From: Kiritimatiellia bacterium
GTDB lineage: Bacteria; Verrucomicrobiota; Kiritimatiellia; RFP12; UBA1067
Reading direction: 5' to 3'
NCBI GenBank assembly: GCA_017631385.1
Contig: JAGBTH010000140.1
Location: 1 to 58,229 of the forward strand
Length of the DNA stretch: 58,229 bases
Part shown: positions 4,194 to 25,211 of the stretch, one piece after another
How the letters are laid out: every line of letters begins with the position of its first letter
Numbering within the stretch: position 1 is the first letter of the stretch
Position numbers and translations under genes: made by a program
Notes under the pieces: model-generated
Seen by the model: only the letters and a program-made list of their open reading frames with translations
What the model was told of the DNA's origin: nothing
The model's database searches: none

Positions 4194-4222
4194 TTCATAA
4201 CAGTCCATGTTTTTTTCGCGAA
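4194..4222 (-). promoter_or_regulatory. tripartite promoter-like motif, copy 1
   Basis: Minus strand: TTCGCG-AAAAAAACATGGACTGT-TATGAA. It lies between the terminator at 4234..4276 and the VRR-NUC gene. Confidence 0.6.
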
Positions 4223-4233
4223 TTTTGAGACAG

Positions 4234-4276
4234 CAAAAAATAAAAGAGAGTGTAAGTATTACTCACACCCTCTCTC
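4234..4276 (-). terminator. rho-independent terminator
   Basis: Minus strand: GAGAGGGTGTGAG-loop-CTTACACTCTCTT followed by TTTATTTTTT. Confidence 0.65.
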
Positions 4277-4279
4277 GTT

Positions 4280-4711
4280 TTACTTTAGTGTTTTCGAAAT
4301 GATCTCGCCATCCACATTGAAATCCAACAATACGGATTTTTCGTACCCGTTCACAAATCTTGAAGCGCCTCCCTCGGAAAGTCCGAAGTCTACATAATTG
4401 TCGCCGTTAGGATTATTTTCTTCATAAATCCAACCAACCACTTGTCCGGCTTTTGAGCGGGGAATACCCAACATGTCATAGACCTCGTTTAAGAATATAT
4501 GACCCACCGACTTCAGTTTATCGTTTGCATATCGTTCCTGAAGTTTGATGAACGCCAAATTCATTTCGCTATTGTCATTCCACATCGGACTACTCTCGTC
4601 AAAAAACCGTGCGTATTGGCTGTATGTTTTTACACCCTTTGCCTCAACCTGTTTGACATCAACCTTTACCGGTTCGTCACTTTCAATTTTGATCGTGATA
4701 ATAGTTTCCAT
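4280..4711 (-). CDS. paralogue containing only the C-terminal domain of the 17845/20459/21496 family
   Basis: IFLNEVYDMLGIPRSKAGQVVGWIYE...VDFGL...VLLDFNVDGEII is closely similar to the C-terminus of the 320-aa protein at 17845..18807. Confidence 0.65.
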   Translation of the reverse strand: METIITIKIESDEPVKVDVKQVEAKGVKTYSQYARFFDESSPMWNDNSEMNLAFIKLQERYANDKLKSVGHIFLNEVYDMLGIPRSKAGQVVGWIYEENNPNGDNYVDFGLSEGGASRFVNGYEKSVLLDFNVDGEIISKTLK

Positions 4712-5010
4712 AATATGTTCTCCTTTAAATATGTGATAGTGACCTTTCGGTCCATAAAAGGAGATGCTGGTAACGCGACTAAAATTTTGCCTAAAATTCG
4801 TCTTTGGTCATTTGCCCACTTTTATTTCTATATTATATATTTTTAAAATTTTTATTTTCACATAAAATAGGGAGAAAAAGTGGGTTTTTGACCAGAACTC
4901 AAATTTTTCTTCAAAAACACCTCAAAATGGGTCCAAAACAGCCCAAAAACGCCCTTTTTTAGCCTTTTTCGACCATTTTTCACGATTTTTCTCTGCCCAC
5001 TTTTATTTTC

Positions 5011-5033
5011 AAAAGTGACCAAAAGCCCACTTT
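5011..5033. repeat. 23-nt direct repeat, copy 1 (AAAAGTGACCAAAAGCCCACTTT)
   Basis: Identical to 5085..5107. Confidence 0.9.
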
Positions 5034-5084
5034 TTTTGACCAAAAACGGTCACCCTTGATCGAAACGCACACAAATGGTCAAAT

Positions 5085-5107
5085 AAAAGTGACCAAAAGC
5101 CCACTTT
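5085..5107. repeat. 23-nt direct repeat, copy 2 (AAAAGTGACCAAAAGCCCACTTT)
   Basis: Identical to 5011..5033. A partial third copy, AAAAGTGACCAC, lies at 5115..5126. Confidence 0.9.
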
Positions 5108-5132
5108 CCAAATCAAAAGTGACCACAAATTT

Positions 5133-5612
5133 TTACTTCCCGAACATGTAAATATCCCGGTTTCCGAGCTTCGTAGCCTCCGCTTCAAGCCAGAAATCGT
5201 CGTACTTACCTAACCTGTCACCATAGCCACGACTCGTCATAAATATCCTGTACCAATATCTCAAAGCGCTAGCGATAGTGAAGAATACCATTACCGGACC
5301 GTACATAGCGTTCTGTATAGAATGACCGAGCTCGTGTCTTTTGGTCGCGCCATTCGCGCCTCTGTGAGTTATGATAAACATACCTAAGCACAACCCGCCC
5401 CAATTGCGTCCGATCTCGAAATGCCAGCAGCCAGCATACTTCCTCGGTCTTTTACCGATCAGTAACAAACCAAGTGCAGCGATGGCTCCGACAATATTCA
5501 TGAGAAGACCCCATGTGAGATTGAGAGTATAATATACTCTACGGTACTCACTCGGCTTCACTGGTCTCGCCTTCGTCAGCGCTGTCTTTATTTTCTGAAT
5601 CAGATTTCTCAT
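5133..5612 (-). CDS. membrane protein with HExxH zincin motif
   Basis: Two or three hydrophobic segments plus TKRHELGHSIQNAMYGP. GGAG lies upstream of the ATG at 5612. The start overlaps the upstream gene by 65 nt, so it is uncertain. Confidence 0.55.
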   Translation of the reverse strand: MRNLIQKIKTALTKARPVKPSEYRRVYYTLNLTWGLLMNIVGAIAALGLLLIGKRPRKYAGCWHFEIGRNWGGLCLGMFIITHRGANGATKRHELGHSIQNAMYGPVMVFFTIASALRYWYRIFMTSRGYGDRLGKYDDFWLEAEATKLGNRDIYMFGK

Positions 5613-6183
5613 TGAACTTCGCTATCTCCTTTCCTAAATTAGCTACTGCTTTGATTGCCCTAGCCGTTGTGTTTGCAAGCGTGTCGGCTTCCGCGGAAAG
5701 CTTGCATATAGAATTTATATCCGAAGTTTTGAATCTATCGGGATATGCCTTCTTGTACAACTCGACGTCCTGCTCCTCGAACGCGGGCTTGTCGTTCCGC
5801 CCCTCGAAGACCTTAACGAGCTCTTTGTTCGAGTACGCCTCTACATACTCGCCGTTGATCTCGAGTTTATTGTAACCATCGACACAGATGTCTGTTTTGT
5901 GCGTTACGACTTCATCCTTATGGATATAAGAAACAGTATAAGCTCGTAAGGGAATGAACTCGAAAAGTCTCTTGACCGCGTAGGTATCAATAACGTACTT
6001 ATTACCATTGGCTTTTTCCTTAAATTCCAGAACCTTAACCTTAGCTTCGAGCTTATTATTGAGAATCTGAAGTGCTTTGACATCTGACGCGAGATCCCTA
6101 ACCTCGTTGATCAGATTAACGTTTGTAAGCTCGAGGGATCTGATACGTTCCTTTAACTTCTTATTAAACATCTTTTTTCTCAC
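5548..6183 (-). CDS. hypothetical coiled-coil protein (211 aa)
   Basis: Long ORF with a heptad-like N-terminus and an acidic C-terminal tail. Confidence 0.6.
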   Translation of the reverse strand: MRKKMFNKKLKERIRSLELTNVNLINEVRDLASDVKALQILNNKLEAKVKVLEFKEKANGNKYVIDTYAVKRLFEFIPLRAYTVSYIHKDEVVTHKTDICVDGYNKLEINGEYVEAYSNKELVKVFEGRNDKPAFEEQDVELYKKAYPDRFKTSDINSICKLSAEADTLANTTARAIKAVANLGKEIAKFNEKSDSENKDSADEGETSEAE

Positions 6184-6544
6184 TTTCTTTTATGTAATTT
6201 TTATAGAGTTCGAGATCGACCATAACGAGCTCGTTTTCCTGTACCTGATAGACTTCCAGAAGCTCGGGATTAGGACCGTCAAACCAGAATTCGAGGAATC
6301 GACCGTTTGCTACGGGTTTCACCCACTGTGAGGGTTTCGGTTGGATAGATACGGCGTGTAACTTGCGATCCCCGCCAATATAATTAACAACCCAGGTGTA
6401 TCGGTGTACGCAGGCGCGTCGGAAAGTATATAACTCGCCCTTGGCTTCGTTTTTGAATTCGAGAATATCGCATCTTTTCGATAAATAATCTACCCTACCG
6501 TGCAAGATCGCGATTTCCCGTAACAACTTTTTCTTAGTAATCAT
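6164..6544 (-). CDS. hypothetical protein (126 aa)
   Basis: ORF with GGAGGAG RBS. Its LEFKNEAKGELY segment echoes LEFKEKANGNKY of the next gene, suggesting weak paralogy. Confidence 0.6.
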   Translation of the reverse strand: MITKKKLLREIAILHGRVDYLSKRCDILEFKNEAKGELYTFRRACVHRYTWVVNYIGGDRKLHAVSIQPKPSQWVKPVANGRFLEFWFDGPNPELLEVYQVQENELVMVDLELYKNYIKESEKKDV

Positions 6545-6553
6545 ATCTCCTCC

Positions 6554-6814
6554 TTAAATATATAAATAGAATGTTGATGTGAGATTGATGAGATCGTCCG
6601 TACGGTTTATCGCCCTAACCTCGCGATCTTTTAAGTGCGGCTCGTTGTTTAAGAATGCCTCTGAAGCCGTCCGTACCATGTTGTATTTACCCGGGAAGAA
6701 GTGATAAACATCGCCGGTGTTTTCGTCTACGATATATACTTCAATGTTGTTGTTTCTAGGAAAATCCTCGCTAGAGCTGTTTTGAACGAGAGTGTCGATT
6801 ATCTTACTGTTCAT
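6554..6814 (-). CDS. hypothetical protein (86 aa)
   Basis: ORF whose start overlaps the stop of the upstream small ORF. Confidence 0.55.
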   Translation of the reverse strand: MNSKIIDTLVQNSSSEDFPRNNNIEVYIVDENTGDVYHFFPGKYNMVRTASEAFLNNEPHLKDREVRAINRTDDLINLTSTFYLYI

Positions 6815-6974
6815 TGTCTACTCCTCCGAACCAGGACTCGATGGACGCTCTCTGCTCGTCTGAGCACTCGCCGAAAATAACTTCGTCGGGTCGTTCGTCG
6901 ATAATATAATCCATGATCCACGCCTTCTGCTCGTCTGTAAGATCGTCGAATTTTATTACGGATTTGTTCTCCAT
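6804..6974 (-). CDS. small acidic protein (56 aa, below the ORF-track cutoff)
   Basis: AAAGAAAGGTAAAAAG-ATG. Translation: MENKSVIKFDDLTDEQKAWIMDYIIDERPDEVIFGECSDEQRASIESWFGGVDNEQ. It fills an otherwise empty 170-nt gap. Confidence 0.45.
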   Translation of the reverse strand: MENKSVIKFDDLTDEQKAWIMDYIIDERPDEVIFGECSDEQRASIESWFGGVDNEQ

Positions 6975-6990
6975 CTTTTTACCTTTCTTT

Positions 6991-7842
6991 TTAAATTAAA
7001 TATGGAACCTCTATGACCTCGCCACGATCGGTAACGATAGATTGCATTACCTCTCCAGAAATAGGATCGACAAATATATCATCGATGCCGCAATTGTTAT
7101 AGCGATAGTCGTCATAAATATTCCGCTCTTCTTCTAGGAACTCTTCCTCGAGTTCGTGTATAGTTTGGGTTCTAGTGAAACATCTACGACTCGTGTTGTT
7201 TGTCTCTTGTAAAGTGCGTAGAATATTCCACAGATCCGGGTGGTTGTAATATATGTGCTGTAGTTCACGCTTACTAGCGTTCGGACAGAAGAAACATCCG
7301 TTCCTGCCGGTTATCTTATAAATAGGAGAAAGTAATCCGGCCCGCTCGCAAATATCCATGGCGTCTTTTTCGGTGATACCGTACTTAGCCAATATGGATA
7401 CTTTGTTAGTTCCTTCGAGTCTCTTCAAGCGTTTTGGCTCGTCGGCGGCTATTCCAACGTACTGAATAAACTCGCCGTCTTGCTCGCTTAGATATTTTCG
7501 TATGGGCGGAATCTTACAGTCTCTATTAATATTACAAAGACCCGGTATGGGGAAACCACGTAGTAACCCCATCGTTGAACCTCTAACTCGTACCGTGTGA
7601 AAATCATCCCACATTGTTTTGTCCGATCGCAGCACAATTGTGTTCAGACCGTAGAGCTCTTTCAACTTTGGGATCGCTACGTTATATATGAAATCTCTGT
7701 GTTCGGGAAACTCGCCGCTAATCTGATCGGTAAACATTACCTCAGAATATATAACCGCGTCGATGGGTTCGCCGTGCTCTTTTGCTACAATTATCTGAGC
7801 CAAGCTATCCTTTCCGAAACTACAGCTTGCTATGTATTTCAT
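6991..7842 (-). CDS. PAPS-reductase-like PP-loop ATPase family protein
   Basis: N-terminal PP-loop SCSFGKDS and a C-terminal Cys pair, GRNGCFFCPN. Confidence 0.75.
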   Translation of the reverse strand: MKYIASCSFGKDSLAQIIVAKEHGEPIDAVIYSEVMFTDQISGEFPEHRDFIYNVAIPKLKELYGLNTIVLRSDKTMWDDFHTVRVRGSTMGLLRGFPIPGLCNINRDCKIPPIRKYLSEQDGEFIQYVGIAADEPKRLKRLEGTNKVSILAKYGITEKDAMDICERAGLLSPIYKITGRNGCFFCPNASKRELQHIYYNHPDLWNILRTLQETNNTSRRCFTRTQTIHELEEEFLEEERNIYDDYRYNNCGIDDIFVDPISGEVMQSIVTDRGEVIEVPYLI

Positions 7843-8156
7843 TCAGTGGGTTTGGGTTCGTTATAGCTTTTCCAGCTTATAGTGAGTATGAAACGGTAAA
7901 CCGGAGTAAACAACGTGTCCCTCGACTCTTGCGATTCCGCATCGACACAATACCCGTAATCTTTCAAACGTTTGATTATACTATAACCACACGTCTTATA
8001 ATCTTCCTCGGATAAGATATACCCGCATTCGTAATTACCGAGCTCGCACTCATGTTTTATACGGTCGCTTATTTCTTCGAGAAGCGTGTCGAGTTTTTCA
8101 TCGGCGTATTGATTGGCTAGCTCCTTAGCTTCCTTCGCGCTGAGTAGTCTGGTCAT
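7839..8156 (-). CDS. hypothetical protein (105 aa)
   Basis: 4-nt overlap coupling with the neighbouring genes. Confidence 0.55.
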   Translation of the reverse strand: MTRLLSAKEAKELANQYADEKLDTLLEEISDRIKHECELGNYECGYILSEEDYKTCGYSIIKRLKDYGYCVDAESQESRDTLFTPVYRFILTISWKSYNEPKPTE

Positions 8157-8335
8157 TCCGTACCCTCCCTACCCGGCTGGTCGGCTGAAGATTCATAAAC
8201 ATCCACCACCTGCTTATAAAGCCGGAGCCGACGTGCAGCCTCATCCAGAAGCTCCGCTATATGGTAGAGAACTCCATCTCGCCAGAGCATCTTTGCTGTT
8301 TTTTCCAGCTTTTCGATTAATTCATTGGTATCCAT
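8153..8335 (-). CDS. hypothetical protein (60 aa)
   Basis: ORF coupled to its neighbours. Confidence 0.5.
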   Translation of the reverse strand: MDTNELIEKLEKTAKMLWRDGVLYHIAELLDEAARRLRLYKQVVDVYESSADQPGREGTE

Positions 8336-8337
8336 TG

Positions 8338-8682
8338 TTATTCCTCCATTTCGGATTCTGTGATATATCTGTATCTGCGTCCTTTGTAGGGCTGACCGGT
8401 TCTACAAGCTTCATATATGCTAGACTCGTAAGCATCCACGGCGTGATCCGCGGCGCTCTTAGCGCTTATGAATATCTGGATAATATTGCCCTTCTCGTCG
8501 ATTAAAGCGACGTGCTTATGTTTCTTGATCGGCTTCACCTTATGGTCGTCGCGGTGATTAAAGCAAGTCCAAGAGCAGTACATTCTTTTACGACTGTCCG
8601 TATATACGTGCTCGGGAGTCGGATAGAATTCCTTGCCACACATCGGACAGAATCGAGTTACAAAATTTTTCTTACCTGGCAT
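8338..8682 (-). CDS. zinc-ribbon plus homing-endonuclease-type DNA-binding-domain protein (114 aa)
   Basis: CPMCGKEF...CSWTCF. The segment VALIDEKGNIIQIFISAKSAADHAVDAYESSIYEACRTGQPYKGRRYRY resembles NUMOD/IENR-type modules. Start trimmed to MPGKK, which has RBS AAGAGG. Confidence 0.55.
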   Translation of the reverse strand: MPGKKNFVTRFCPMCGKEFYPTPEHVYTDSRKRMYCSWTCFNHRDDHKVKPIKKHKHVALIDEKGNIIQIFISAKSAADHAVDAYESSIYEACRTGQPYKGRRYRYITESEMEE

Positions 8683-8687
8683 TTTTC

Positions 8688-8810
8688 TTAACCTCTTATT
8701 TGCATTATTAGAATATAAATGGCTAGGGCGAAACAGTAGAGCCCCGCTAAAATGACGGCGCCACCAGCTATCGCCATAACGCATGAGAATATGATGTCAA
8801 GTGTGGTCAT
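8688..8810 (-). CDS. 40-aa single-pass membrane peptide (not in the ORF track)
   Basis: GGAGGT directly upstream. Translation: MTTLDIIFSCVMAIAGGAVILAGLYCFALAIYILIMQIRG. ATGA overlap with the stop of 8807..9019. Confidence 0.45.
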   Translation of the reverse strand: MTTLDIIFSCVMAIAGGAVILAGLYCFALAIYILIMQIRG

Positions 8811-9019
8811 ACCTCCATGATCCTTTCCGCTATATTGTTTAATAAACAGAACACTTCCGAAACAGACACCTTAGTCTTGTCGGTATACGTTCCGAAGTGT
8901 AGCTCGAAAGTTTCTCGCATTTTTAGAATAGTTTCGAGTTTTGCCTCTCGCATTGCTCTAGCTCTCCCCGCCTCATAACCGTTGCGATATGCCGTTTCCG
9001 CTTTGTCGGGTGTGTACAT
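8807..9019 (-). CDS. hypothetical protein (70 aa)
   Basis: ORF with RBS. Confidence 0.55.
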   Translation of the reverse strand: MYTPDKAETAYRNGYEAGRARAMREAKLETILKMRETFELHFGTYTDKTKVSVSEVFCLLNNIAERIMEV

Positions 9020-9032
9020 GTTAAATCCTCGC

Positions 9033-9454: not shown

Positions 9455-9497
9455 TTTCAAAATAAAAGAGAAGACACCGTGTTGATGTCCTCTCTCG
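9455..9497 (-). terminator. rho-independent terminator
   Basis: Minus strand: AGAGAGGACA-loop-TGTCTTCTCT + TTTATTTT. Confidence 0.65.
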
Positions 9498-9502: not shown

Positions 9503-9718
9503 TTAACTTCTCAGATATTCTTTGTCTCGCTTCTCGATTAATTCTCGTGCCTCTTTTCGAGATAAGCCAACAAATTCGCTCTCGGTAAATGATAGTTCGT
9601 CAGGATAATATACTCCTAAACAATAATCATGCGAACCATCATCAAACCAAACAGCTATGAACTGTTGTCTTATGTTCTTCCATATCTCGCATTTAATAAT
9701 AATACTTTCGTCGCTCAT
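9503..9718 (-). CDS. hypothetical protein (71 aa)
   Basis: ORF behind the motif at 9748..9776. RBS AAAGGAG. Confidence 0.6.
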   Translation of the reverse strand: MSDESIIIKCEIWKNIRQQFIAVWFDDGSHDYCLGVYYPDELSFTESEFVGLSRKEARELIEKRDKEYLRS

Positions 9719-9747: not shown

Positions 9748-9776
9748 TTCATAAAGGAGTGTGTTTGCGACGCGAA
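9748..9776 (-). promoter_or_regulatory. tripartite promoter-like motif, copy 2
   Basis: Minus strand: TTCGCG-TCGCAAACACACTCCTT-TATGAA. Confidence 0.6.
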
Positions 9777-11040: not shown

Positions 11041-11994
11041 TTATCCTTTGTCGAGAGCCTCGCCAAGATCGCCGATGGCTGCTTCTATAGCCTCGATCAT
11101 CTCAGCCTTGGTCGTTCTCTTTTTATTGAATATCTTAGTGAGTGCATCGTAGGCGTTGTTAACGTTTGTTCTTGCGGCTGTTGTGGTGATTTCGTCAACC
11201 TTCGCGTCATTGTCGTTGACCGCAGCCTTATAGAGAGCCTTAGCCTGTCTTCTGGACATAATGCTGTCAGCCTGGATCTTCTGGATAAAGCACTCTCTTA
11301 TGATATCGTTGAATTTGTTTCCGTTACCGTAAACCTTCTTAGCGATACACATAACGATACCTACCTCGGGATTGTAAGTATCGCCGGACTGAGCCTTAAC
11401 TACAGTCTTAGAGCCATCCGCCCAGATTACGATCGTCGCGGGGTTGTTGAATATAACCTTCTCGATCTCAGGAATGTTGGCGTAGTAACCCTTTACCGGT
11501 TTAGAGTTGGAGCACATCTTAGTGTACGCGGCGTACTTCATGGTGGAGGGCGCGGGCTCCTCGCATCTTATAATGATCTGATCAGGTACAAAAGGGTCGC
11601 CTCTCTTAACGTCGATGGTCTTAGGGGTGATTACCTTATCTCCTATAACTACTTTGAGGTTTGCGAAATCGTAAGTATTCATTTTTTTCTCACTTTCTTT
11701 TATACATTTTACTATTGTTTCCTGTATTGGATTAGATTTGGGCCATTTGAGGGCCGGCCATTTTTGTCTCTCGGCATCGGGTTGGATCTTTAACTTATTT
11801 GTTTCGTCGGAGTCGATCCAGACCGCACGCCAATTATCGCGATGAGCCATCTCACTGTTTGTCGATACGGTGTTGCCAGTATGGCCTATCCCACACGGTA
11901 TTCCTAACGTGCGTTCTATATCATTTTTGATATACGCTGCCGCCTTAGCGATTTTACTATCGAGATAAGCTGTAGTTACAAAATCCGCCATCAC
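11041..11994 (-). CDS. hypothetical protein (317 aa)
   Basis: Long ORF. An internal RBS-like site before MNTYDF means that two products cannot be excluded. Confidence 0.55.
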   Translation of the reverse strand: MMADFVTTAYLDSKIAKAAAYIKNDIERTLGIPCGIGHTGNTVSTNSEMAHRDNWRAVWIDSDETNKLKIQPDAERQKWPALKWPKSNPIQETIVKCIKESEKKMNTYDFANLKVVIGDKVITPKTIDVKRGDPFVPDQIIIRCEEPAPSTMKYAAYTKMCSNSKPVKGYYANIPEIEKVIFNNPATIVIWADGSKTVVKAQSGDTYNPEVGIVMCIAKKVYGNGNKFNDIIRECFIQKIQADSIMSRRQAKALYKAAVNDNDAKVDEITTTAARTNVNNAYDALTKIFNKKRTTKAEMIEAIEAAIGDLGEALDKG

Positions 11995-12171: not shown

Positions 12172-12211
12172 AATAGTAAAAGAGAAGACACCGAATCGAT
12201 GCCTCCTCTTT
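12172..12211 (-). terminator. rho-independent terminator
   Basis: Minus strand: AAGAGGAGGCA-loop-TGTCTTCTCTT + TTACTATTT. Confidence 0.55.
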
Positions 12212-12224
12212 TGTGGTGGTAACC

Positions 12225-17844: not shown

Positions 17845-18807
17845 TTATTCTCCTTCGTAAATGCGGTCGATAATTACTCCATCAACGTTAAAGTCAAGCA
17901 GGATGCTTCTCTCACGTCCGTTTACAAAATCGCGTCTTCTAGCGTTATTGTAATATCCATCGTAAATGCCGAAATCTACAAAGCTATCGATCGTAGGATC
18001 TTTCGGATCATAGCGCCAGCCTACAACCTGACCAGCCTTAGACTTAGGGATGCCGAGCATTTCATATACCTCGTTCAAGAATAAATATCCCTCGCGCTCG
18101 AGTCTCTTGCTAGCCTCGGCCTGCTGCATCTTAAGGAACGTGAGATTATAGCCGGGATCTTTGGTCCAGCCAGCGCAATACTCGTCGAAGAACCTAGCGT
18201 AATCACTAACGTTTCTAGGATCAAGCTCGTTTACGGTGGTTTTAACCTTTTTTTCCTTGCCGTTTTCGTCTACGACAACTTCCTCGACCTCTTTCACCTT
18301 GATGTTGTGTCTGAGTTCGCGATCGATCTCCTTGCCGAATCGGTCGACGACACGACCTCTATATTCCTTGAAGCTCTTATCGATGGTTGCGTAAGCAGCG
18401 GCAGTAGCGATGTAACGCTTACGAAGGATGCCGTGAGATGTCAGCATGCAGCCAAGGGATGCCGCGCCGAGAATAACCGCGGGGCCATAAAGCTTGGCAA
18501 GCTTGACACCCGTATGTGCGTATGTGATAGTGAGATCCTTTTTGCTATCTTCCGCAGTATATTCTCTACCATCGGCGGTCGCACCTTTCTCGGTGGCAGT
18601 GTGGATCTCTTCGATGGTTTTCTTTGATTCGGATATAACATCCGTGACCTTCAGCGTTGCCTTACAAGCCAGAACGGCACTCGCCACAACACCAACGGTT
18701 CCGGCTACTGCGAGAATCTCGGGACTATGTTTCTTGAGCTGGAACCCGGTTTTGTAAAATGCTCTGCTCACACCTGAGATAATTTGTGCTTTAGTCATTT
18801 TTATCAT
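17845..18807 (-). CDS. paralogous TM-anchored protein, family member 1 (320 aa)
   Basis: N-terminus KKHSPEILAVAGTVGVVASAVLACKATLKV plus the C-terminal GIPKSKAGQVVGW domain. It resembles what I recall as a DUF6353-type family, which is unverified. Confidence 0.65.
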   Translation of the reverse strand: MIKMTKAQIISGVSRAFYKTGFQLKKHSPEILAVAGTVGVVASAVLACKATLKVTDVISESKKTIEEIHTATEKGATADGREYTAEDSKKDLTITYAHTGVKLAKLYGPAVILGAASLGCMLTSHGILRKRYIATAAAYATIDKSFKEYRGRVVDRFGKEIDRELRHNIKVKEVEEVVVDENGKEKKVKTTVNELDPRNVSDYARFFDEYCAGWTKDPGYNLTFLKMQQAEASKRLEREGYLFLNEVYEMLGIPKSKAGQVVGWRYDPKDPTIDSFVDFGIYDGYYNNARRRDFVNGRERSILLDFNVDGVIIDRIYEGE

Positions 18808-20070: not shown

Positions 20071-20081
20071 ATAGCCTCCTT

Positions 20082-20120
20082 AAAAATAAAAAGAGAATAC
20101 CTTGATTTAGTATCCTCTTT
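20082..20120 (-). terminator. rho-independent terminator
   Basis: Minus strand: AAGAGGATAC-loop-GTATTCTCTT + TTTATTTTT. Confidence 0.65.
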
Positions 20121-20148
20121 TATCGTTAAACACCTTTATTAATATTTA

Positions 20149-20385
20149 TCACTTGGTGTTTTCGGAATCGGTCTCGTCAACGTCACCCTCGATATCGCCT
20201 TCGATGGCGTCCTTCTTAGCCTTCTTAGCCTTAATCATATTCATAACCTTCAGACCGAGTGCCGCTATAGTTGCGGTAACAAGTCCGAACGCTACAAACT
20301 TCTTAAAACCTCCGTTTGCGTTAGAAGTAACAGCCTCAACCGCTACATCGTTCGTAGTTTCGTTTACAATGATCTCGTTTTCCAT
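20149..20385 (-). CDS. 78-aa membrane protein with acidic tail
   Basis: Start trimmed to MENEII (RBS AAGGAGAAACAAA). The longer ORF would overlap the preceding gene and the motif at 20429..20457. Confidence 0.6.
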   Translation of the reverse strand: MENEIIVNETTNDVAVEAVTSNANGGFKKFVAFGLVTATIAALGLKVMNMIKAKKAKKDAIEGDIEGDVDETDSENTK

Positions 20386-20428
20386 TTTGTTTCTCCTTAT
20401 GTAAAATATTTTTATTGGGGTGTTATCC

Positions 20429-20457
20429 CTCATAATACCGTTTGTTTTTTTCGCGTT
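20429..20457 (-). promoter_or_regulatory. tripartite promoter-like motif, copy 3
   Basis: Minus strand: AACGCG-AAAAAAACAAACGGTAT-TATGAG. Confidence 0.55.
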
Positions 20458-20458
20458 A

Positions 20459-21229
20459 TCATTCGAAATGGTGCTTTGGCGGACGTACATAATCAAGCAC
20501 GATACAAGGTCTATCGTACTCGTCCTTACCCGGATTGTAGTCGATCTCGATGAGACCGTCGGCAAGATTCCAACCAATATAATCGCTGATATCGGTTTTC
20601 TCCAGACCGATCTCGTAATAGAAATCGGTTAAGGATATGGATCCGCTCATATCAAACATCATTTGTCGGTTGAGCTCATTTACAACCCTTTTGACCTTGT
20701 CGATATCATGCTTAAAATATCTTTTCGATACTGGATCGCAGAATAGTGTATCGCCTTTATCCGTGATATACACCTCATGCTTGCTTATCGGGTTTTCATC
20801 AAGCCTTTTCTGACTGACCTTTTCGCGAACCTCTCGTTCCTTTTTTTCACCGATCGTCTCGATGACTTTTTCTCGATATTCGGTAAGAGCAGTCTCCGAA
20901 ATCTTATAAGCGGTTGCTAGTGCTGCGTTTCTACGAAGATTCACGGATGTAGCGCCGAATATGCAACCACCCGAAACCACTCCGATTACGGCAGCCGGAA
21001 TATAACACCTCCAGCAGGTTTTGATGGTTTCTATCGGCGTTAACTCTTCCCTATCTTCCTCAAACTTACGATCGTCTATCAGCCGTAAAGCTTTTGGCGT
21101 AGCTTTTACTGCTAATACGGTCGAGGTGATCATACCAGCAACGCCAATACCGGTTAGGATTTCCGGACTGTGTTTGGATATCGACGACCCAACGCCTTTT
21201 ACAAGTTTCGTGAAATTTAACTTATTCAA
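20459..21229 (-). CDS. paralogous TM-anchored protein, family member 2 (256 aa)
   Basis: N-terminus SKHSPEILTGIGVAGMITSTVLAVKATPKA. TTG start behind AAAGGAG. Confidence 0.65.
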   Translation of the reverse strand: MNKLNFTKLVKGVGSSISKHSPEILTGIGVAGMITSTVLAVKATPKALRLIDDRKFEEDREELTPIETIKTCWRCYIPAAVIGVVSGGCIFGATSVNLRRNAALATAYKISETALTEYREKVIETIGEKKEREVREKVSQKRLDENPISKHEVYITDKGDTLFCDPVSKRYFKHDIDKVKRVVNELNRQMMFDMSGSISLTDFYYEIGLEKTDISDYIGWNLADGLIEIDYNPGKDEYDRPCIVLDYVRPPKHHFE

Positions 21230-21247
21230 TTAGATGACTCCTTTCGT

Positions 21248-21279
21248 AAAAATAAAAGAGTCCGAATAGACCCCTTTAT
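21248..21279 (-). terminator. rho-independent terminator
   Basis: Minus strand: AAGGGGTC-TATTCG-GACTCTTT + TATTTTT (stem includes G-U pairs). Confidence 0.5.
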
Positions 21280-21287
21280 CTGTTTTT

Positions 21288-21512
21288 TTATTTAGCAAGC
21301 TTATCGTCGATCATGCCTTCGACCAGTTTCAGTAGTTCTTGCTTATCTGCTTCTGCCTTCTGTACCTTAACCTTTTCGGCAATTATATTTCCGCCAAAAG
21401 TCATGATTATGCCAAGAACCGGTAATAACTTCTTAAGAAAATTAACCAACGCTATCGCCTCCTTTCCATAATATAAGTTGTCGCTTTCGCGGTCGTTAAT
21501 ATAAATACTCAA
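21288..21512 (-). CDS. 74-aa membrane protein
   Basis: Central hydrophobic helix LLPVLGIIMTFGGNII. Confidence 0.55.
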   Translation of the reverse strand: MSIYINDRESDNLYYGKEAIALVNFLKKLLPVLGIIMTFGGNIIAEKVKVQKAEADKQELLKLVEGMIDDKLAK

Positions 21513-22257
21513 TTATAGGGTCGTTGTCGATTATTACTATATAACCTTCCATACCGTCTGCAAATTTGACCTTTTCGTGTCTAAATTCAATGCTCGCATG
21601 ATTATAGAACTCCCGCATGGAATCTATAGACCATCCGACCTCGGCGCCATACTCAGTTCGAGCGAGACCAACCATGTCGTAGAAGTCGTTTAGACAAATA
21701 TAACCGCGGGTCTCGAAATCCGCATTAAATTGCCGTTCTACATTTAATAGATCTTCGATGGTTGATTCAAAGAATCGAAGAGAGTGATTATCAAAGAATA
21801 TAAGATTTTCTTTGGTTACAGAATTTTCGAAATCATCATATTCGTCTTTCATGATTTCTTTCCGAACTCGATCATCGGCGTCATCGCCATATAGTTCCTT
21901 GACTTTTTCTCTATATTTTTTAAACGATACATCCAAAAGCGCGTACGCGCTCATTAAAGAAGCTTGTCTGTGTTTATTCAATATATTTGCCCCAACTATA
22001 CAAGCCACCGTGGAAACACCGGTTATAACCGTCGGAATATATGCGGGACTAGCCGCAACAACGGTTTCTAGTTTCGTGAGTTTTTCGCCCTTATCGACCT
22101 CCGCCTCGACCACCAAGCAAATAGCTTTGGGTGTAGCTTTAGCCGCTAACACGGCAGTGGCAACCACGCCAATACCGCCTACGCAAGTTAATATAGTGGA
22201 TGCGTTTTTATGAAGAAACTTACCGGCTTCCGACCCAATCTTTTGTAAAAATGACAT
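21496..22257 (-). CDS. paralogous TM-anchored protein, family member 3 (253 aa)
   Basis: N-terminus NASTILTCVGGIGVVATAVLAAKATPKA and C-terminal ...YGAEVGW. Confidence 0.65.
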   Translation of the reverse strand: MSFLQKIGSEAGKFLHKNASTILTCVGGIGVVATAVLAAKATPKAICLVVEAEVDKGEKLTKLETVVAASPAYIPTVITGVSTVACIVGANILNKHRQASLMSAYALLDVSFKKYREKVKELYGDDADDRVRKEIMKDEYDDFENSVTKENLIFFDNHSLRFFESTIEDLLNVERQFNADFETRGYICLNDFYDMVGLARTEYGAEVGWSIDSMREFYNHASIEFRHEKVKFADGMEGYIVIIDNDPIIEYLY

Positions 22258-22283
22258 GCGATATAAACCTCCTTTCAGAAAAC

Positions 22284-22313
22284 TAAAAATAAGAGAGTTT
22301 GATCACCCTCTTA
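22284..22313 (-). terminator. rho-independent terminator
   Basis: Minus strand: AGAGGGT-GATCAA-ACTCTCT + TATTTTT. Confidence 0.55.
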
Positions 22314-22487
22314 TCTCTTTTTAACTTTTATAATAATTTCGTCGTTTTCGACATAAGCCTCCAACTTGACGTTCTCAGGATGGTCAAATACTTCCTTCAA
22401 GATAGGACACTTACGTTTAATTGTAATTAATCCTATTCTGCTTATTAAGTTCTTAAACCACTCCTTAATTGTCTCGATAGTTTTCAT
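22311..22487 (-). CDS. 58-aa protein (not in the ORF track)
   Basis: AAGGAGGTATAGC-ATG. Translation: MKTIETIKEWFKNLISRIGLITIKRKCPILKEVFDHPENVKLEAYVENDEIIIKVKKR. Confidence 0.5.
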   Translation of the reverse strand: MKTIETIKEWFKNLISRIGLITIKRKCPILKEVFDHPENVKLEAYVENDEIIIKVKKR

Positions 22488-22517
22488 GCTATACCTCCTT
22501 CATAAAAGTTTATTTAT

Positions 22518-22546
22518 TTCATAAAGGGGTATGTTTTTTTCGCGAG
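22518..22546 (-). promoter_or_regulatory. tripartite promoter-like motif, copy 4
   Basis: Minus strand: CTCGCG-AAAAAAACATACCCCTT-TATGAA. Confidence 0.6.
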
Positions 22547-22554
22547 TCGACAGC

Positions 22555-22586
22555 CGCAAAAAGAAGAGACTTTATAGTCCCCTCTT
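22555..22586 (-). terminator. rho-independent terminator
   Basis: Minus strand: AGAGGGGAC-TATAAA-GTCTCTTCT + TTTT. Confidence 0.6.
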
Positions 22587-22820
22587 TTTTATTAGTTTCT
22601 TCTCGCTCCTTAAGTACCTACGCGTTTTCTTCTCTAATTTAGCTACATCCTTATCGTGTCGTTTAATCATTTTATCAGCCACACGCTGTCCGAGCTCATA
22701 TCCGGATTTAAACATGCAACCCAAAGCTACTATGCCTATTACGCACATTAAGCTTATAGAATCCGCATGTATGATAGGTGTTGCTCTAGCGGTCGAACTG
22801 ATTTTTACATATTCGTCCAT
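22572..22820 (-). CDS. 82-aa membrane protein
   Basis: Hydrophobic helix LMCVIGIVALGCMF and a basic tail. Confidence 0.6.
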   Translation of the reverse strand: MDEYVKISSTARATPIIHADSISLMCVIGIVALGCMFKSGYELGQRVADKMIKRHDKDVAKLEKKTRRYLRSEKKLIKKRGL

Positions 22821-22858
22821 GATATTACCTCCTTAATTAAATTTTCGAACACATGGTC

Positions 22859-22887
22859 CTCATAAAATAGCCTGCGTTTTCCGCGAC
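22859..22887 (-). promoter_or_regulatory. tripartite promoter-like motif, copy 5
   Basis: Minus strand: GTCGCG-GAAAACGCAGGCTATTT-TATGAG. Confidence 0.55.
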
Positions 22888-23247
22888 TTAAATATCGCGT
22901 CTATCGAAACAGGTCTCCCAACGTTCTTTTGGGATAGGCTTCATCTTCAAAGCCCACATCGTTTGACGAATTGTCACGGTTGGATATAACCCGTCCTTAC
23001 TTTCTCCAGAACGATCGCCAAAGAATTCTTTGAACTTCGGGTGTAAATATATGTCGTCCGTTAACCAAGGATCTATTGCGTCCCACCAGGTGCTTTTAGA
23101 GCCAGCATCATATCGTTGCTGTATTATAGCTAAACCTCTATCTTGAACTTTAAGTAATGTGCATCTATCGTATACCGGATGATCGCAATAATATATGGAT
23201 CCATACATAGACGAAAATATAGATGGTTTCTCGTAGTGGTATCTCAT
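22888..23247 (-). CDS. hypothetical protein (119 aa)
   Basis: ORF with no recognised motif. Confidence 0.6.
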   Translation of the reverse strand: MRYHYEKPSIFSSMYGSIYYCDHPVYDRCTLLKVQDRGLAIIQQRYDAGSKSTWWDAIDPWLTDDIYLHPKFKEFFGDRSGESKDGLYPTVTIRQTMWALKMKPIPKERWETCFDRRDI

Positions 23248-23261
23248 GGGTCACCTCGAAA

Positions 23262-23292
23262 ACAAAAAGAAGAGACCGTTAAGTCCCCTCTT
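23262..23292 (-). terminator. rho-independent terminator (29-nt core identical to 24938..24966)
   Basis: Minus strand: AGAGGGGAC-TTAACG-GTCTCTTCT + TTTT. Confidence 0.65.
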
Positions 23293-23304
23293 TTTAAGTT
23301 GTAT

Positions 23305-23832
23305 TTACTTCGTTTTCGGGAGAAGTTTGTTAATAAATCCTCTTCCCATTATTGTTGTAACGCTTCCAGTCTCTTCAAACTTCAAAGATTTCAACGTTCC
23401 CCAAATCGTAATTAACGACGGAACCACGATGCCGGTTACCGCTATGATATTTCGAATCAATCGATCCTTATCCTCGCTCTCAGCCTGCTTAGCCTTCAAA
23501 GAGTTTTCAAACTCCGTAACAGCATTAGCGCTTTCGTTCTGCTTGGTCTTGAGGTCCCGCTCAAATTCGGCTGCTAACTCTGCAACCTTAACTTGACGCT
23601 CCTTCAATTCCCGCTCGATTTCAGCAGCTTCTTCTGCATACTTCTGCTTTTCGGCTCTCTCTAGGGCTTCGGCTTCAAGCTTATCTATCTCGATCGCTCG
23701 ATCTACAAGCTTAACCAGTCCTTCGACCGTCACTTTGTACTCATCGGTACCAACGCTCATCTCCTTCAGATATTTCATTTCGTCCTGGATTTCGTCACGT
23801 AATAACTGCCTCATTTCATTATCCATGTTCAA
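23305..23832 (-). CDS. coiled-coil protein with C-terminal membrane anchor (175 aa)
   Basis: E/K/A-rich heptads followed by IIAVTGIVVPSLITIWG. Confidence 0.6.
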   Translation of the reverse strand: MNMDNEMRQLLRDEIQDEMKYLKEMSVGTDEYKVTVEGLVKLVDRAIEIDKLEAEALERAEKQKYAEEAAEIERELKERQVKVAELAAEFERDLKTKQNESANAVTEFENSLKAKQAESEDKDRLIRNIIAVTGIVVPSLITIWGTLKSLKFEETGSVTTIMGRGFINKLLPKTK

Positions 23833-23858
23833 TCCTCCTTTTTAATAAGTTAATACGT

Positions 23859-23887
23859 CTCACAATAGAGGTTGTCATTATTGCGAA
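23859..23887 (-). promoter_or_regulatory. tripartite promoter-like motif, degenerate copy 6
   Basis: Minus strand: TTCGCA-ATAATGACAACCTCTAT-TGTGAG. Same spacing and CA position, with two substitutions. Confidence 0.4.
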
Positions 23888-24090
23888 AGATCGGCGTTAT
23901 TATCGACCTTAAGAACGACTATGCGTTTCTTAGGCAATTTATCCAGATCATCGACACAGAGACGATATATGTCTTTTTCCGGATTAGAATGATCGATCTT
24001 AAGAGTTCCGATTCTCGATTGGGCGACAAATATAATCCATCCAATAAGACATCCGACGATCATTCCTATTACATAAAATAGAAATTCCAT
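23878..24090 (-). CDS. 70-aa membrane protein
   Basis: N-terminal helix FLFYVIGMIVGCLIGWIIFV. Confidence 0.6.
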   Translation of the reverse strand: MEFLFYVIGMIVGCLIGWIIFVAQSRIGTLKIDHSNPEKDIYRLCVDDLDKLPKKRIVVLKVDNNADLSQ

Positions 24091-24217
24091 GCTGACTCCT
24101 TTCTAAAAGTTTTTCGAAAAACCCAACCCGGGATTTTTTCACACTACTAAAATAGCACCGTATTCGGTAACCTACGTACGGGAAAATATAATCTAGATTA
24201 AAAACTTCTAACCTAGA

Positions 24218-24254
24218 ATAAAAAGAAAGAGCCTAAGTTTTTCACTTAGACTCG
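24218..24254 (-). terminator. rho-independent terminator
   Basis: Minus strand: GAGTCTAAG-TGAAAAA-CTTAGGCTC + TTTCTTTTTATT. Confidence 0.7.
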
Positions 24255-24260
24255 ATTTCT

Positions 24261-24455
24261 TTAGGCCTTTGTATCCTCTTTGGATACCAATTTATCGCCA
24301 CAGTACAATTCAAATCCCTGTCCAGGCCATGTATCTTGGGCTTCCTGATACTTTGCTATCGCTTCATCCGTAGTTCCCTTAAACCACAGAATCCTTTTCT
24401 CTTTCAAAGTCTTGATTGTCCAATTGTAGACCTTATTGTTTTTAGTTACTGCCAT
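24261..24455 (-). CDS. hypothetical protein (64 aa)
   Basis: RBS GGAGGT. Confidence 0.6.
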   Translation of the reverse strand: MAVTKNNKVYNWTIKTLKEKRILWFKGTTDEAIAKYQEAQDTWPGQGFELYCGDKLVSKEDTKA

Positions 24456-24485
24456 CGTTAAATACCTCCAAAATTTTTATTATTG

Positions 24486-24514
24486 GCCATAAAAGGCAGT
24501 GCTAAGTTCGCGAT
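24486..24514 (-). promoter_or_regulatory. tripartite promoter-like motif, copy 7
   Basis: Minus strand: ATCGCG-AACTTAGCACTGCCTTT-TATGGC. Confidence 0.5.
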
Positions 24515-24520
24515 GATTAT

Positions 24521-24556
24521 AAATAAAAAGGAGAGACCTTGTTAAGATCCCTCGCT
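24521..24556 (-). terminator. rho-independent terminator
   Basis: Minus strand: GAGGGATC-TTAACAA-GGTCTCTC + CTTTTTATTT. Confidence 0.55.
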
Positions 24557-24715
24557 TTTAGATTGTTTCTTAAATATCGATTTAAGACGATTCTTTACTG
24601 AGTTGATAATTATTTGCTCTTTGCCTTCTATTTTTCCTTGGTATGCCTTAACGGCTAAATAACTAGCCAACGAGCACGCCGCGGATAATGTAATTCTACC
24701 TATAATTTTACCCAT
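24542..24715 (-). CDS. 57-aa membrane protein
   Basis: Start trimmed to MGKIIGRITLSAACSLASYLAV (RBS AAAGGAGGCG). The longer ORF would run through the motif and the terminator. Confidence 0.5.
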   Translation of the reverse strand: MGKIIGRITLSAACSLASYLAVKAYQGKIEGKEQIIINSVKNRLKSIFKKQSKSEGS

Positions 24716-24730
24716 ATAATATCGCCTCCT

Positions 24731-24759
24731 TTCATAAATGAGGGTGTTTGCTTCGCGAA
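24731..24759 (-). promoter_or_regulatory. tripartite promoter-like motif, copy 8
   Basis: Minus strand: TTCGCG-AAGCAAACACCCTCATT-TATGAA. The 3' box directly abuts the SD sequence AGGAGG. Confidence 0.6.
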
Positions 24760-24788
24760 AAGAAGAGGTCGTGTTTAAACCTCTCTTT
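24757..24788 (-). terminator. rho-independent terminator fused to motif copy 8
   Basis: Minus strand: AGAGAGGT-loop-ACCTCTTCT + TTT, running straight into TCGCG. Confidence 0.55.
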
Positions 24789-24811
24789 TTCAATTGAACG
24801 TATATATAAAA

Positions 24812-24892
24812 TCATCTTCCATTTATTACGGCTAACGATACGTATATAAACATCATAGCACCAACAACACCGTAAAATATATCTGTGATCAT
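24812..24892 (-). CDS. 26-aa hydrophobic peptide (speculative)
   Basis: GGAGGATGTATT-ATG. Translation: MITDIFYGVVGAMMFIYVSLAVINGR. It sits between its own motif (24906..24934) and its own terminator. Confidence 0.3.
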   Translation of the reverse strand: MITDIFYGVVGAMMFIYVSLAVINGR

Positions 24893-24905
24893 AATACATC
24901 CTCCT

Positions 24906-24934
24906 TTCATAAGAACCAATGTAAAAACCACGAA
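24906..24934 (-). promoter_or_regulatory. tripartite promoter-like motif, variant copy 9
   Basis: Minus strand: TTCGTG-GTTTTTACATTGGTTCT-TATGAA. The 3' box abuts the SD sequence AGGAGG. Confidence 0.45.
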
Positions 24935-24935
24935 C

Positions 24936-24966
24936 AAAAAAAGAAGAGACCGTTAAGTCCCCTCTT
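24936..24966 (-). terminator. rho-independent terminator (29-nt core identical to 23264..23292)
   Basis: AAAAAGAAGAGACCGTTAAGTCCCCTCTT on the plus strand at 24938..24966. Confidence 0.65.
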
Positions 24967-25034
24967 CGATACCTCTAATTAACATTAGATGATCAGGTAT
25001 GCTAAATAATTGATTTGTAATTATTCGACGCGCA

Positions 25035-25157
25035 TCATATAGTTCCAACAAAGTTGACAATGTCGCATATTACATCGGCAATAATCACAATGTGGCTAAA
25101 CGCCGCACACAGTATAACAAATCCAATCACAACATTAAGCATATTAAAGTTTTTCAT
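25035..25157 (-). CDS. 40-aa membrane peptide
   Basis: Start trimmed to MKNFNMLNVVIGFVILCAAFSHIVIIADVICDIVNFVGTI (RBS AAAGGAGAAC). The longer ORF would cover the motif at 25183..25211. Confidence 0.45.
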   Translation of the reverse strand: MKNFNMLNVVIGFVILCAAFSHIVIIADVICDIVNFVGTI

Positions 25158-25182
25158 AATAGTTCTCCTTTTAGGTTTTGTT

Positions 25183-25211
25183 TTCATAAAGGAGCATGTT
25201 AATTTCGCGAT
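25183..25211 (-). promoter_or_regulatory. tripartite promoter-like motif, copy 10
   Basis: Minus strand: ATCGCG-AAATTAACATGCTCCTT-TATGAA. It overlaps the 3' end of the regulator gene. Confidence 0.6.

Follow-up and report, generated by a model that had tools for sequence, protein, structure and literature searches.

In a 58,229-nt stretch of DNA (contig JAGBTH010000140.1 of assembly GCA_017631385.1, deposited as a Kiritimatiellia bacterium and hereafter called the window), which represents a phage genome, we identified a tripartite, 29-base motif that is repeated 12 times in front of genes of the non-structural arm. The distribution and conservation of this motif make it very probable that it is a signal for transcription initiation. 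With some reservation, we also favor the view that the motif is read directly by a 924-amino acid (aa) predicted RNA polymerase (RNAP) of the same phage, i.e., that it is the phage's own RNAP promoter. This view is built on comparative sequence analysis.

A preliminary description of the window had listed ten minus-strand copies of the pattern TCGCG-N7-CA-N8-TATGAR. All ten were found where they had been placed, but two more, at 4778..4751 and 21492..21465 on the minus strand, had been overlooked. The 17-nt spacer with CA at its positions 8-9 proved to be a property of all 12 copies. The exact pattern occurred six times in the window, always on the minus strand, compared to 0.01 in dinucleotide-preserving shuffles, and none of 100 shuffled sequences reached six matches. 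When up to two mismatches were allowed, 12 matches were detected, again on the minus strand only, versus 2.8 expected. A 34-nt weight matrix built from the 12 copies scored them at 20.5-39.3 bits, and the next best position on either strand reached 10.5 bits. Enrichment and strand bias thus exclude a chance origin of the motif, which the preliminary description had kept in view. All 12 copies are located between 4.2 and 25.2 kb, and a matrix scan of 27.6-58.2 kb yielded no match, in line with the earlier statement that the second arm carries no copy. This structural and lysis arm (27656..58229 and 1..202, minus strand) covers approximately 30 kb. A megablast search of the motif region against phage records also gave no match.

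When re-registered, the window consensus reads ttCGCG-N7-ACA-N5-TwTTAT-G-RRA. It contains three conserved patches approximately 10.5 bp apart; being one helical turn from each other, they lie on the same face of the duplex. This periodicity points to duplex DNA as the recognized form and is the pattern expected for protein docking with helix-turn-helix (HTH) modules. The third box is TwTTAT-G in the window and exactly TATAAT-G or TATAGT-A/G in distant relatives. The boxes had initially been considered unlike both TTGACA and TATAAT. A TTGACA-like box is indeed absent, but the 3′ box re-registers as a TATAAT-like hexamer plus G; in the initial register (17 bp), the 3′ hexamer was TATGAA, which lacks the -7 T.

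Placement of the motif was highly regular. Each copy is intergenic or overlaps just the last codons of the upstream gene, and 12 of 12 are on the gene strand, where they follow terminators or stop codons and precede Shine-Dalgarno (SD) sequences, so that the placement first noticed for ten copies extends to the full set. A hairpin followed by a T-run is located directly 5′ of five copies (24933, 24758, 24513, 22545 and 4221). Downstream of each copy is an SD, then a start codon 16-81 nt past the conserved G.

The motif is kept in hundreds of related genomes. Among IMG/VR loci centered on 80 homologs of a 139-aa gene of the window (discussed below), which were scanned with the motif matrix, approximately 55 carried 2-25 matches each, without exception on the gene strand. 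A logo of 468 unique sites, which is partly circular because the sites were chosen with the matrix, reads ttCGCGAAAwwwACAnnbyCTwTTATGRRA, with information peaks at CGC, CA and TwTTATG. Faecalibacterium phage FP_oengus has 14 motif matches, all in its non-structural arm, one of them at the 3′ end of its homolog of the 139-aa gene, as in the window. In 21 loci from Clostridia genomes, 60 motif sites were on the gene strand and 2 on the opposite strand. We also applied a relaxed pattern, CG[CT][GA]-N7-CA-N5-T[AT]T[AT]AT, to 74 IMG/VR loci centered on the polymerase gene. Upstream of this gene (578 kb), 99 sites were on the gene strand versus 3 opposite; downstream of it (362 kb), the counts were 1 and 0. 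In 51 of 69 IMG/VR loci, a copy was located ahead of an endonuclease-exonuclease-polymerase operon, 920-1380 nt upstream of the start of the polymerase gene, as is the copy at 4221..4194 in the window. Altogether, approximately 500 sites of the same geometry were found in related gut phages and Clostridia prophages; an IMG/VR pattern scan also returned 32 motif-rich pieces that are too short to reach the RNAP gene.

Distant relatives were collected through the polymerase, which is 38-48% identical in 250 phage records (Arthrobacter 95, Gordonia 55, Streptomyces 54, Lactococcus 13, Siphovirus 12, Rhodococcus 4 and others). Their early arms contain the same tripartite element with the same spacings. 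Arthrobacter phage Arcadia has eight copies of TCGCGTAAAtTACAnGGGCTATAATrr, on the gene strand only, one of which precedes the same endonuclease-exonuclease-RNAP operon. Six copies of cTCGCAaGAAtTACAyGyCCTATAATGAGACCC are present in Streptomyces phage DrGrey and ten of TTCGCAnnnATTACAyGCCyTATAATGAGACCCC in Gordonia phage Secretariat, whose pattern is shared by five copies in an oral metagenome siphovirus (contig89). Streptomyces phage Scap1 has two copies of a TATAGT variant. In Lactococcus phages, 1706 carries about ten copies of C[GA]CAyrTTTTACAynnnCTATAGTAGAAAG and P092 ten copies of TTTTACAyACCCTATAATGArAg, a form without box 1. These motif-bearing phages range from 33% to 60% G+C and have hosts in two phyla. 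Conservation in actinophages runs well past the hexamer (TATAATGAGACCCCTAyGAAAGGA), with 88-96% identity among Gordonia, Streptomyces and Rhodococcus phages, much above that of the surrounding DNA.

The occurrence of the motif followed that of the polymerase. A blastn search with a 46-nt Gordonia copy against 50,697 phage records hit 840 places in 130 records, and among the matches listed all were on the plus strand. These records comprised Gordonia 55, Streptomyces 53, contig89 11, Arthrobacter 6, Rhodococcus 4 and Microbacterium 1. Per-genus counts for motif and polymerase were equal or nearly equal for Gordonia, Streptomyces, contig89 and Rhodococcus, and motif counts were lower for Arthrobacter and Microbacterium. 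For the five hosts listed in both searches, per-host counts were identical, and the accessions listed in both agree. The motif was present in all eight RNAP-bearing lineages examined.

The position of SDs provided information on the start site. Among 457 sites with a clear SD, start codon and ORF (open reading frame), no SD begins upstream of the G just 3′ of the hexamer. The SD start is 3-4 nt past this G in 81 sites and 0-2 nt past it in 14, together 95 of 457. Three window copies have the SD 3-4 nt past the G, and phage 1706 shows the same pattern (CTATAGTAGAAGGAGG). The proximity to the SD that had been pointed out for the copies at 24731 and 24906 was borne out: in both, the SD begins 3 nt past the conserved G. 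By this indirect test, a sigma-70-type start 6-8 nt past the hexamer does not fit: a fifth of the units would lose their SD. The comparative data agree with a transcription start at about the conserved G/purine and support the early suggestion of initiation inside the motif, since the location of the SDs leaves no room for a start 7 nt beyond the hexamer. A layout with an AT-rich hexamer just before a purine start resembles T7-class promoters.

Additional evidence came from RNA genes. In Lactococcus phage P092, the motif is located directly before two tRNA-like genes (L084, 20099-20165 and 20487-20553, immediately downstream of motif copies), which matched the Rfam tRNA model at 43.8 and 39.2 bits, above the gathering score. 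ARAGORN made no call on these P092 genes, whose anticodon arm is shortened. A tRNA-like sequence, judged by eye, also follows one motif copy in phage 1706 (L312, ~11120-11190). The RNAs of P092 and 1706 may be decoy or regulatory RNAs. The presence of the motif before tRNA-like genes implies that it acts on transcription rather than translation.

These data bear on the possibility that the motif functions at the RNA level, for example as a structured 5′-UTR (untranslated region), as a site of processing or, by analogy with the start-associated sequences of Cluster K mycobacteriophages, as an enhancer of translation. Such a role would agree with the constant presence of the motif near gene starts and with actinophage conservation that reaches into the leader (GAGACCCCTAcGAAAGGA). 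Yet the RNAalifold consensus of the 12 copies contained 0 pairs (0 kcal/mol), the distance to the start codon, which is short and fixed for the Cluster K sequences, varies in the window, and neither the untranslated tRNA-like genes behind the motif nor the 10.5-bp periodicity fits an RNA element. We therefore regard it as extremely improbable.

A protein-binding site other than a promoter (e.g., a repressor target of the stoperator kind, a site for antitermination or roadblocking, or a signal for replication or packaging) was also considered. The motif is asymmetric and occurs in a single orientation in intergenic regions and at gene ends, features that it shares with the stoperators of Cluster A and CA actinophages (PMC13313380), and the location of the three patches on one DNA face indicates duplex binding. 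Cluster A/CA stoperators and the Cluster K sequences likewise are short, one-orientation repeats present in many copies. Stoperators, however, need a cognate repressor and belong to temperate phages, whereas no repressor or regulator is common to the window, Arcadia, DrGrey and P092. Those actinobacteriophage relatives in which the motif occurs are, we presume, lytic. A non-promoter site would also leave about a dozen terminator-bounded units with no other promoter candidates, and would not be expected to be so constantly related to the SD, with a sharp lower limit, to precede tRNA-like genes, or to end in an AT-rich hexamer plus purine, as promoters do. Such a site is quite improbable. Sigma-70-type consensus sites were not enriched in the motif arm (28 versus 24.8 expected, and 38 versus 36.6). 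The strict strand bias, the order of terminator, motif and SD, the tRNA-like genes behind the motif and its conservation together support the phage-specific promoter that was originally proposed.

Three readers had been suggested for this promoter: the HTH-bearing RNAP-like protein, the 139-aa protein and a redirected host holoenzyme. The first of these, the 924-aa protein (461..3235, minus strand), matches phrog_4291 (PHROG 4291) over its full length with 1260 bits. It has an N-terminal HTH at approximately residues 85-116 and a C-terminal, sigma-region-4-like HTH at approximately 893-922. Between them is a catalytic loop, SGADFDGD (residues 509-516), close to what we take to be the NADFDGD of bacterial beta′; its GADFDGD part (510-516), a DxDGD metal-binding loop, was invariant in 28 close and 8 distant homologs. 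The Pfam RdRP family did not match the window protein, and three homologs matched it below the gathering score (E 5e-4 to 6e-3). A phmmer search of the 924-aa protein against the PDB found no match. With Foldseek, the top match was QDE-1 (7y7t_A; E 3.5e-4, probability 1.00, but a template modeling (TM) score of 0.24 with a query model whose mean predicted local distance difference test (pLDDT) was 62), followed by 2j7n, RDR2 and then the largest subunits of Pol II/III and bacterial RNAP (beta′). These fold matches are only supportive because AlphaFold confidence is low. A polymerase assignment based on HHpred was made for the same protein in a preprint, which is silent on promoters and regards it as the signature gene of a supercluster to which both Actinobacteria and Firmicutes phages belong (bioRxiv 10.1101/842583). 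By its sequence features, the protein looks like a single-chain two-barrel RNAP of the QDE-1/YonO type. A full-length homolog with 38% identity to the window protein is orf75 of Lactococcus phage 1706 (EU081845.1; L313, 3083-6172), which RefSeq names RNA-dependent RNA polymerase.

Comparison of the window with Arcadia, DrGrey and P092 favored the 924-aa protein among the three candidates. Non-structural proteins common to these phages are an 84-aa ORF, the polymerase, an exonuclease, an endonuclease, a 143-aa ORF, a helicase, a primase-polymerase and DUF6353 proteins, and recognized DNA-binding domains are present only in the polymerase. Sharing, DNA-binding domains and co-occurrence with the motif thus point to the same protein. 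In addition, a box 1 of the form CGCR or CRCA is present in eight examined phages, 1706 among them, and each of these has ES[ST][VIF]R as the recognition helix of the N-terminal HTH; in P092, the phage without box 1, this helix is PGSVT. The recognition helix of the C-terminal HTH was similar, although not identical, in all eight. These sequences suggest that the N-terminal HTH co-varies with box 1.

The second candidate was the 139-aa protein (25199..25618), a small protein proposed to be sigma-like, or RinA/ArpU-like, and to direct the host RNAP to the motif. Its gene is the first in the arm, a motif copy overlaps its 3′ end, and the FP_oengus homolog has the same arrangement. Its distant homologs are located 1.5-2.5 kb upstream of large-terminase genes, a place typical for RinA/ArpU-type late activators of Gram-positive phages. 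Against this stands the distribution of the protein. A tblastn search over whole records found homologs in just four phage records, none of them from Actinobacteria or Lactococcus phages, and a profile hidden Markov model that detected FP_oengus as positive control (1.5e-31) found nothing in Arcadia, P092 and DrGrey (best E 0.46), all of which contain the motif. Conversely, homologs with 32-51% identity occur in loci without any motif; those with 32-47% identity lie near large-terminase genes in otherwise unrelated, motif-less phages, and no variant motifs were found near the distant homologs (L062-L081). The protein has no Pfam or NCBIfam match, and its confident all-helical AlphaFold model (pLDDT 83) has no PDB fold match (E > 2). 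By eye, the protein may resemble RinA. Dissociation from the motif in both directions contradicts the 139-aa protein as a sigma- or RinA-like reader, a role that we consider highly improbable. The 139-aa family is very large in gut metagenomes (6558 matches). Its position differs in this phage type, where the gene has been relocated to the start of the early arm, beside the integrase.

The third candidate, the host enzyme, is best considered together with the observations that weigh against reading by the phage polymerase. In this rival explanation, a host primary-sigma holoenzyme would use the TATAAT-like hexamer as its -10 element, and a phage factor bound to CGCG and ACA would replace the -35 contact; the 924-aa protein, as an activator, could provide this factor through its HTH domains. 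A similar logic applies to T4 MotA/AsiA and to crAss-like middle promoters. In many relatives, the third box matches the sigma-A -10 hexamer perfectly, being exactly TATAAT in those of Arthrobacter, Streptomyces, Gordonia and Lactococcus P092, and there is a precedent in crAss-like phage phi14:2, in which a conserved tripartite motif is read by the host polymerase and not by the phage one (bioRxiv 10.1101/2020.03.07.982082). Moreover, the polymerase gene is itself behind a motif copy, so that prophage induction would need another source of the first polymerase molecules; a host enzyme would solve this bootstrapping problem. The 30-kb structural arm is without a copy, whereas YonO transcribes late genes, and a phage polymerase not engaged at the motif would be free for such genes, as YonO is (PMC5467207). 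Other points that count against the phage polymerase concern the strength of the evidence for it. The AlphaFold model of the 924-aa protein is poor, its co-occurrence with the motif reflects in part shared ancestry and not independent events, and the co-variation of the N-terminal HTH with box 1 is suggestive only because it amounts to one lineage change.

Several features nevertheless argue against the host enzyme. A -10-like hexamer is present, but there is no -35-like (TTGACA-like) hexamer 16-18 bp upstream of it, and TTCGCG is 14 bp away. In the window's own family, the key -11 A is found in only 57% of sites. A start 6-8 nt past the hexamer would cost about a fifth of the sites their SD, as noted above, and the boxes are located where sigma makes no base contacts, yet they are kept across phyla. 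Finally, an invariant catalytic loop would not be expected if the 924-aa protein were a mere activator. Redirection of the host holoenzyme thus stays a minority explanation, with the TATAAT hexamer in its favor and spacing and SD positions against it, and we consider it unlikely.

If the phage polymerase is the reader, the promoter would extend from approximately -25 to +4, with the conserved G as +1. Box 1 (tCGCG) would occupy -24..-21 and be bound by the N-terminal HTH, and box 2 (ACA) would occupy -14..-12; the invariant downstream part would be contacted by the C-terminal HTH. The AT-rich hexamer at -6..-1 (TwTTAT, or TATAAT in relatives) would melt, and transcription would begin with purines, G-R-R-A. 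The regulon would consist of about a dozen short, terminator-bounded units coding for small, mostly membrane, proteins, as well as some replication-arm genes and the endonuclease-exonuclease-RNAP operon itself.

It is conceivable, if speculative, that the polymerase is packaged in the virion and then injected. Virion delivery would explain why promoters precede early genes and why the polymerase gene is beside structural genes. One clue in its favor is that orf75 of 1706 was labeled 'structural protein' by its depositors, as were two other small ORFs of the non-structural arm of 1706; the label is echoed in the ReqiPepy6 record (GU580941.1 gp106). Packaging would follow if this label rests on virion proteomics. 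Phage N4 follows the same virion-polymerase logic. It was also described for crAss gp66 (bioRxiv 10.1101/2020.03.07.982082) and P23-45 gp96 (bioRxiv 10.1101/2022.12.01.518664). Virion delivery is, in our assessment, a tentative proposal.

The motif set would work like phage-polymerase promoters; by the geometry tests it is not of the sigma-70 type, and it is not tied to the 139-aa protein. Promoters of the T7/T3/SP6 type are also contiguous elements of approximately 25-30 bp, repeated before many genes on one strand, with an AT-rich stretch directly before a purine +1 and conserved first transcribed bases. Their reader is one phage polypeptide that works without sigma, as we suppose here, and its gene is within the regulon. 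In contrast, the enzyme described here is predicted to be of an unrelated, two-barrel (beta′/QDE-1-like) type, whereas theirs is a Pol-I-like right hand; fused HTH domains are proposed in place of a specificity loop, and the promoter is longer and tripartite. Thermus phage P23-45 provides a closer parallel, as it has two-barrel polymerases (virion gp96 and non-virion gp64) with motifs of their own, and motif presence tracks polymerase presence among its relatives; its virion enzyme serves the earliest genes (bioRxiv 10.1101/2022.12.01.518664). The P23-45 motifs differ in consisting of an AT-rich and a GC-rich block of other sequence, with start sites that were mapped, whereas ours are inferred, and its enzymes, one of which is fused to a tape-measure protein, are without terminal HTHs.

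YonO of Bacillus prophage SPbeta is likewise a single-chain homolog of multisubunit RNAPs, from a temperate Firmicute phage, with a dedicated phage promoter; it transcribes one late operon, and its promoter and factor requirement were left undefined (PMC5467207). Unlike the 924-aa protein, YonO has no reported terminal HTH, and the motif described here is on the non-structural arm and absent from the late arm. The middle and late promoters of crAss-like phages are three-block, sense, intergenic elements, sometimes before tRNA genes, in phages that have a two-barrel polymerase; they differ in having properly spaced -35 and -10 elements at which E. coli sigma-70 holoenzyme initiates, and no common early motif was found for crAss gp66 (bioRxiv 10.1101/2020.03.07.982082). 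In the present case, a -35 element is missing at 16-18 bp, and sigma geometry is difficult to reconcile with the location of the SDs.

A literature search, in which subscription papers were only partly covered, found no description of the motif or of a promoter for the HTH-flanked polymerase family. We tentatively suggest that the motif would be the first consensus described for promoters of a whole family of RNAPs that are single-chain, two-barrel and independent of sigma and that recognize DNA by an HTH fused to each end. Enzyme and promoter would be nearly unchanged across phages of Actinobacteria, Bacilli and Clostridia, and the enzyme would be virion-borne and turn on early genes, making up a T7-like host-independent module built on the cellular-polymerase fold. 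How minimal relatives of cellular polymerases find promoters is an open question. This enzyme family now has a sharply defined candidate promoter with natural box variants and matching variants of one HTH, which makes the question directly testable in easy hosts (Arthrobacter, Gordonia, Streptomyces and Lactococcus). If confirmed, our reading would reveal sigma-free promoter recognition by HTH modules fused to a two-barrel enzyme, explain the transcription program of a widespread phage supercluster that includes abundant gut prophages, and supply a compact, orthogonal pair of polymerase and promoter for use in Gram-positive bacteria.

The phage genome in the window is complete and circularly permuted, with one ORF spanning the 1/58229 junction; a contig of this phage of approximately 58.2-58.4 kb was independently assembled at least twice. 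Gene order mirrors that of FP_oengus: an integrase, a long arm of small genes, three DUF6353 paralogs, a 1318-aa primase-polymerase, a helicase, an endonuclease, an exonuclease and the 924-aa protein, followed by structural genes. Relatives are integrated in Clostridia genomes, including the isolates Cuneatibacter caecimuris DSM 29486 and Clostridium leptum DSM 753. An identical polymerase protein is filed at NCBI under a Kiritimatiellae metagenome-assembled genome (MAG). Strong AGGAGG SDs, synteny with FP_oengus and prophage relatives in Clostridia isolates indicate that the phage host probably belongs to Clostridia and that assignment to the Kiritimatiellae MAG is probably a binning artifact.

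The 12 copies, all on the minus strand, are described here from the head of the arm. The highest-scoring copy, TCGCGAAATTAACATGCTCCTTTATGAA (25183..25210, 39.3 bits), lies over the last codons and stop of the 139-aa ORF, before a 40-aa membrane-peptide ORF (25035..25157). The next, TCGTGGTTTTTACATTGGTTCTTATGAA (24906..24933), is located directly after a terminator (24967..24940), with the SD AGGAGG 3 nt past the conserved G and then a 26-aa ORF. This intrinsic-terminator-like hairpin and T-run (24940..24967, minus strand) ends the upstream unit and provides one example of a terminator-promoter-gene cassette. The copy at 24731..24758 also follows a hairpin and T-run and precedes a 57-aa ORF (24542..24715), whereas that at 24486..24513 is directly behind the terminator at 24553..24531 and before a 64-aa ORF (24261..24455). 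A copy with variant boxes, TCGCA ... TGTGAG (23859..23886), lies over the 3′ end of a 70-aa ORF and before a 173-aa ORF (23305..23826). Just past the stop of a 119-aa ORF is the copy at 22859..22886, followed by an 82-aa ORF (22572..22820), and after a further hairpin and T-run is that at 22518..22545, followed by a 58-aa ORF (22311..22487).

Further along the arm, the first copy absent from the preliminary description, CCGCGAAAGCGACAACTTATATTATGGA (21465..21492, 27.3 bits), has its SD 4 nt past the conserved G and precedes a 53-aa ORF (21288..21449). The copy at 20429..20456 (ACGCG...) follows the stop of a DUF6353 gene and precedes a 78-aa ORF (20149..20385), and that at 9748..9775 is right after the helicase stop codon and before a 71-aa ORF (9503..9718). 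The second newly found copy (4751..4778, 31.0 bits) precedes the conserved 143-aa ORF (4280..4711). The last copy (4194..4221), located after the terminator at 4276..4242, is at the head of the endonuclease-exonuclease-RNAP operon.

Besides the hairpin at 24940..24967, terminator-like hairpins on the minus strand were found at 24553..24531, 24253..24229, 22318..22285, 20121..20089, 12212..12178, 9496..9466 and 4276..4242. Three strong ones, at 20089..20121, 12178..12212 and 9466..9496, are within the replication arm and have no motif copy behind them. Genes downstream of them must be reached by read-through, a hint that some intrinsic terminators are ignored by the enzyme that transcribes this arm. 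The three DUF6353 paralogs (17845..18807, 20459..21229 and 21496..22257, minus strand) each have an N-terminal hydrophobic segment, and DUF6353 genes are kept in all distant relatives, in one to three copies.

Immediately downstream of the RNAP gene is an 84-aa acidic ORF (203..457, minus strand), which has counterparts of 38-46% identity in the same place in phages of Faecalibacterium, Arthrobacter, Streptomyces and Lactococcus; its product may be a polymerase companion. The sequence that separates the RNAP operon from the first structural gene contained just GC-rich palindromes and no promoters of a second class that might serve the late arm. Late genes may be transcribed by read-through out of the polymerase operon, or they may be driven by another signal. 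The palindromes, GGGAGGGGGT...ACCCCCTACCC and CCCCGGGGG plus a T-run, are located at approximately 115..200 (minus strand), between the 84-aa ORF and the first structural ORF. The cos ends of the actinophage relatives are at the equivalent position, and the palindromes could be a cos site or an unusual terminator. Finally, the intergenic region between the integrase and the 139-aa gene (25700..25770, minus strand) has no motif copy. It contains TATGAG, TATGAG and TGTGAA approximately 20 bp apart (ATTATGAGGAGAATTTACATTTATGAGAATTGTAAGGTAATTGTGAATATG) and sigma-70-like sites that point toward the integrase, and may be a lysogeny switch.

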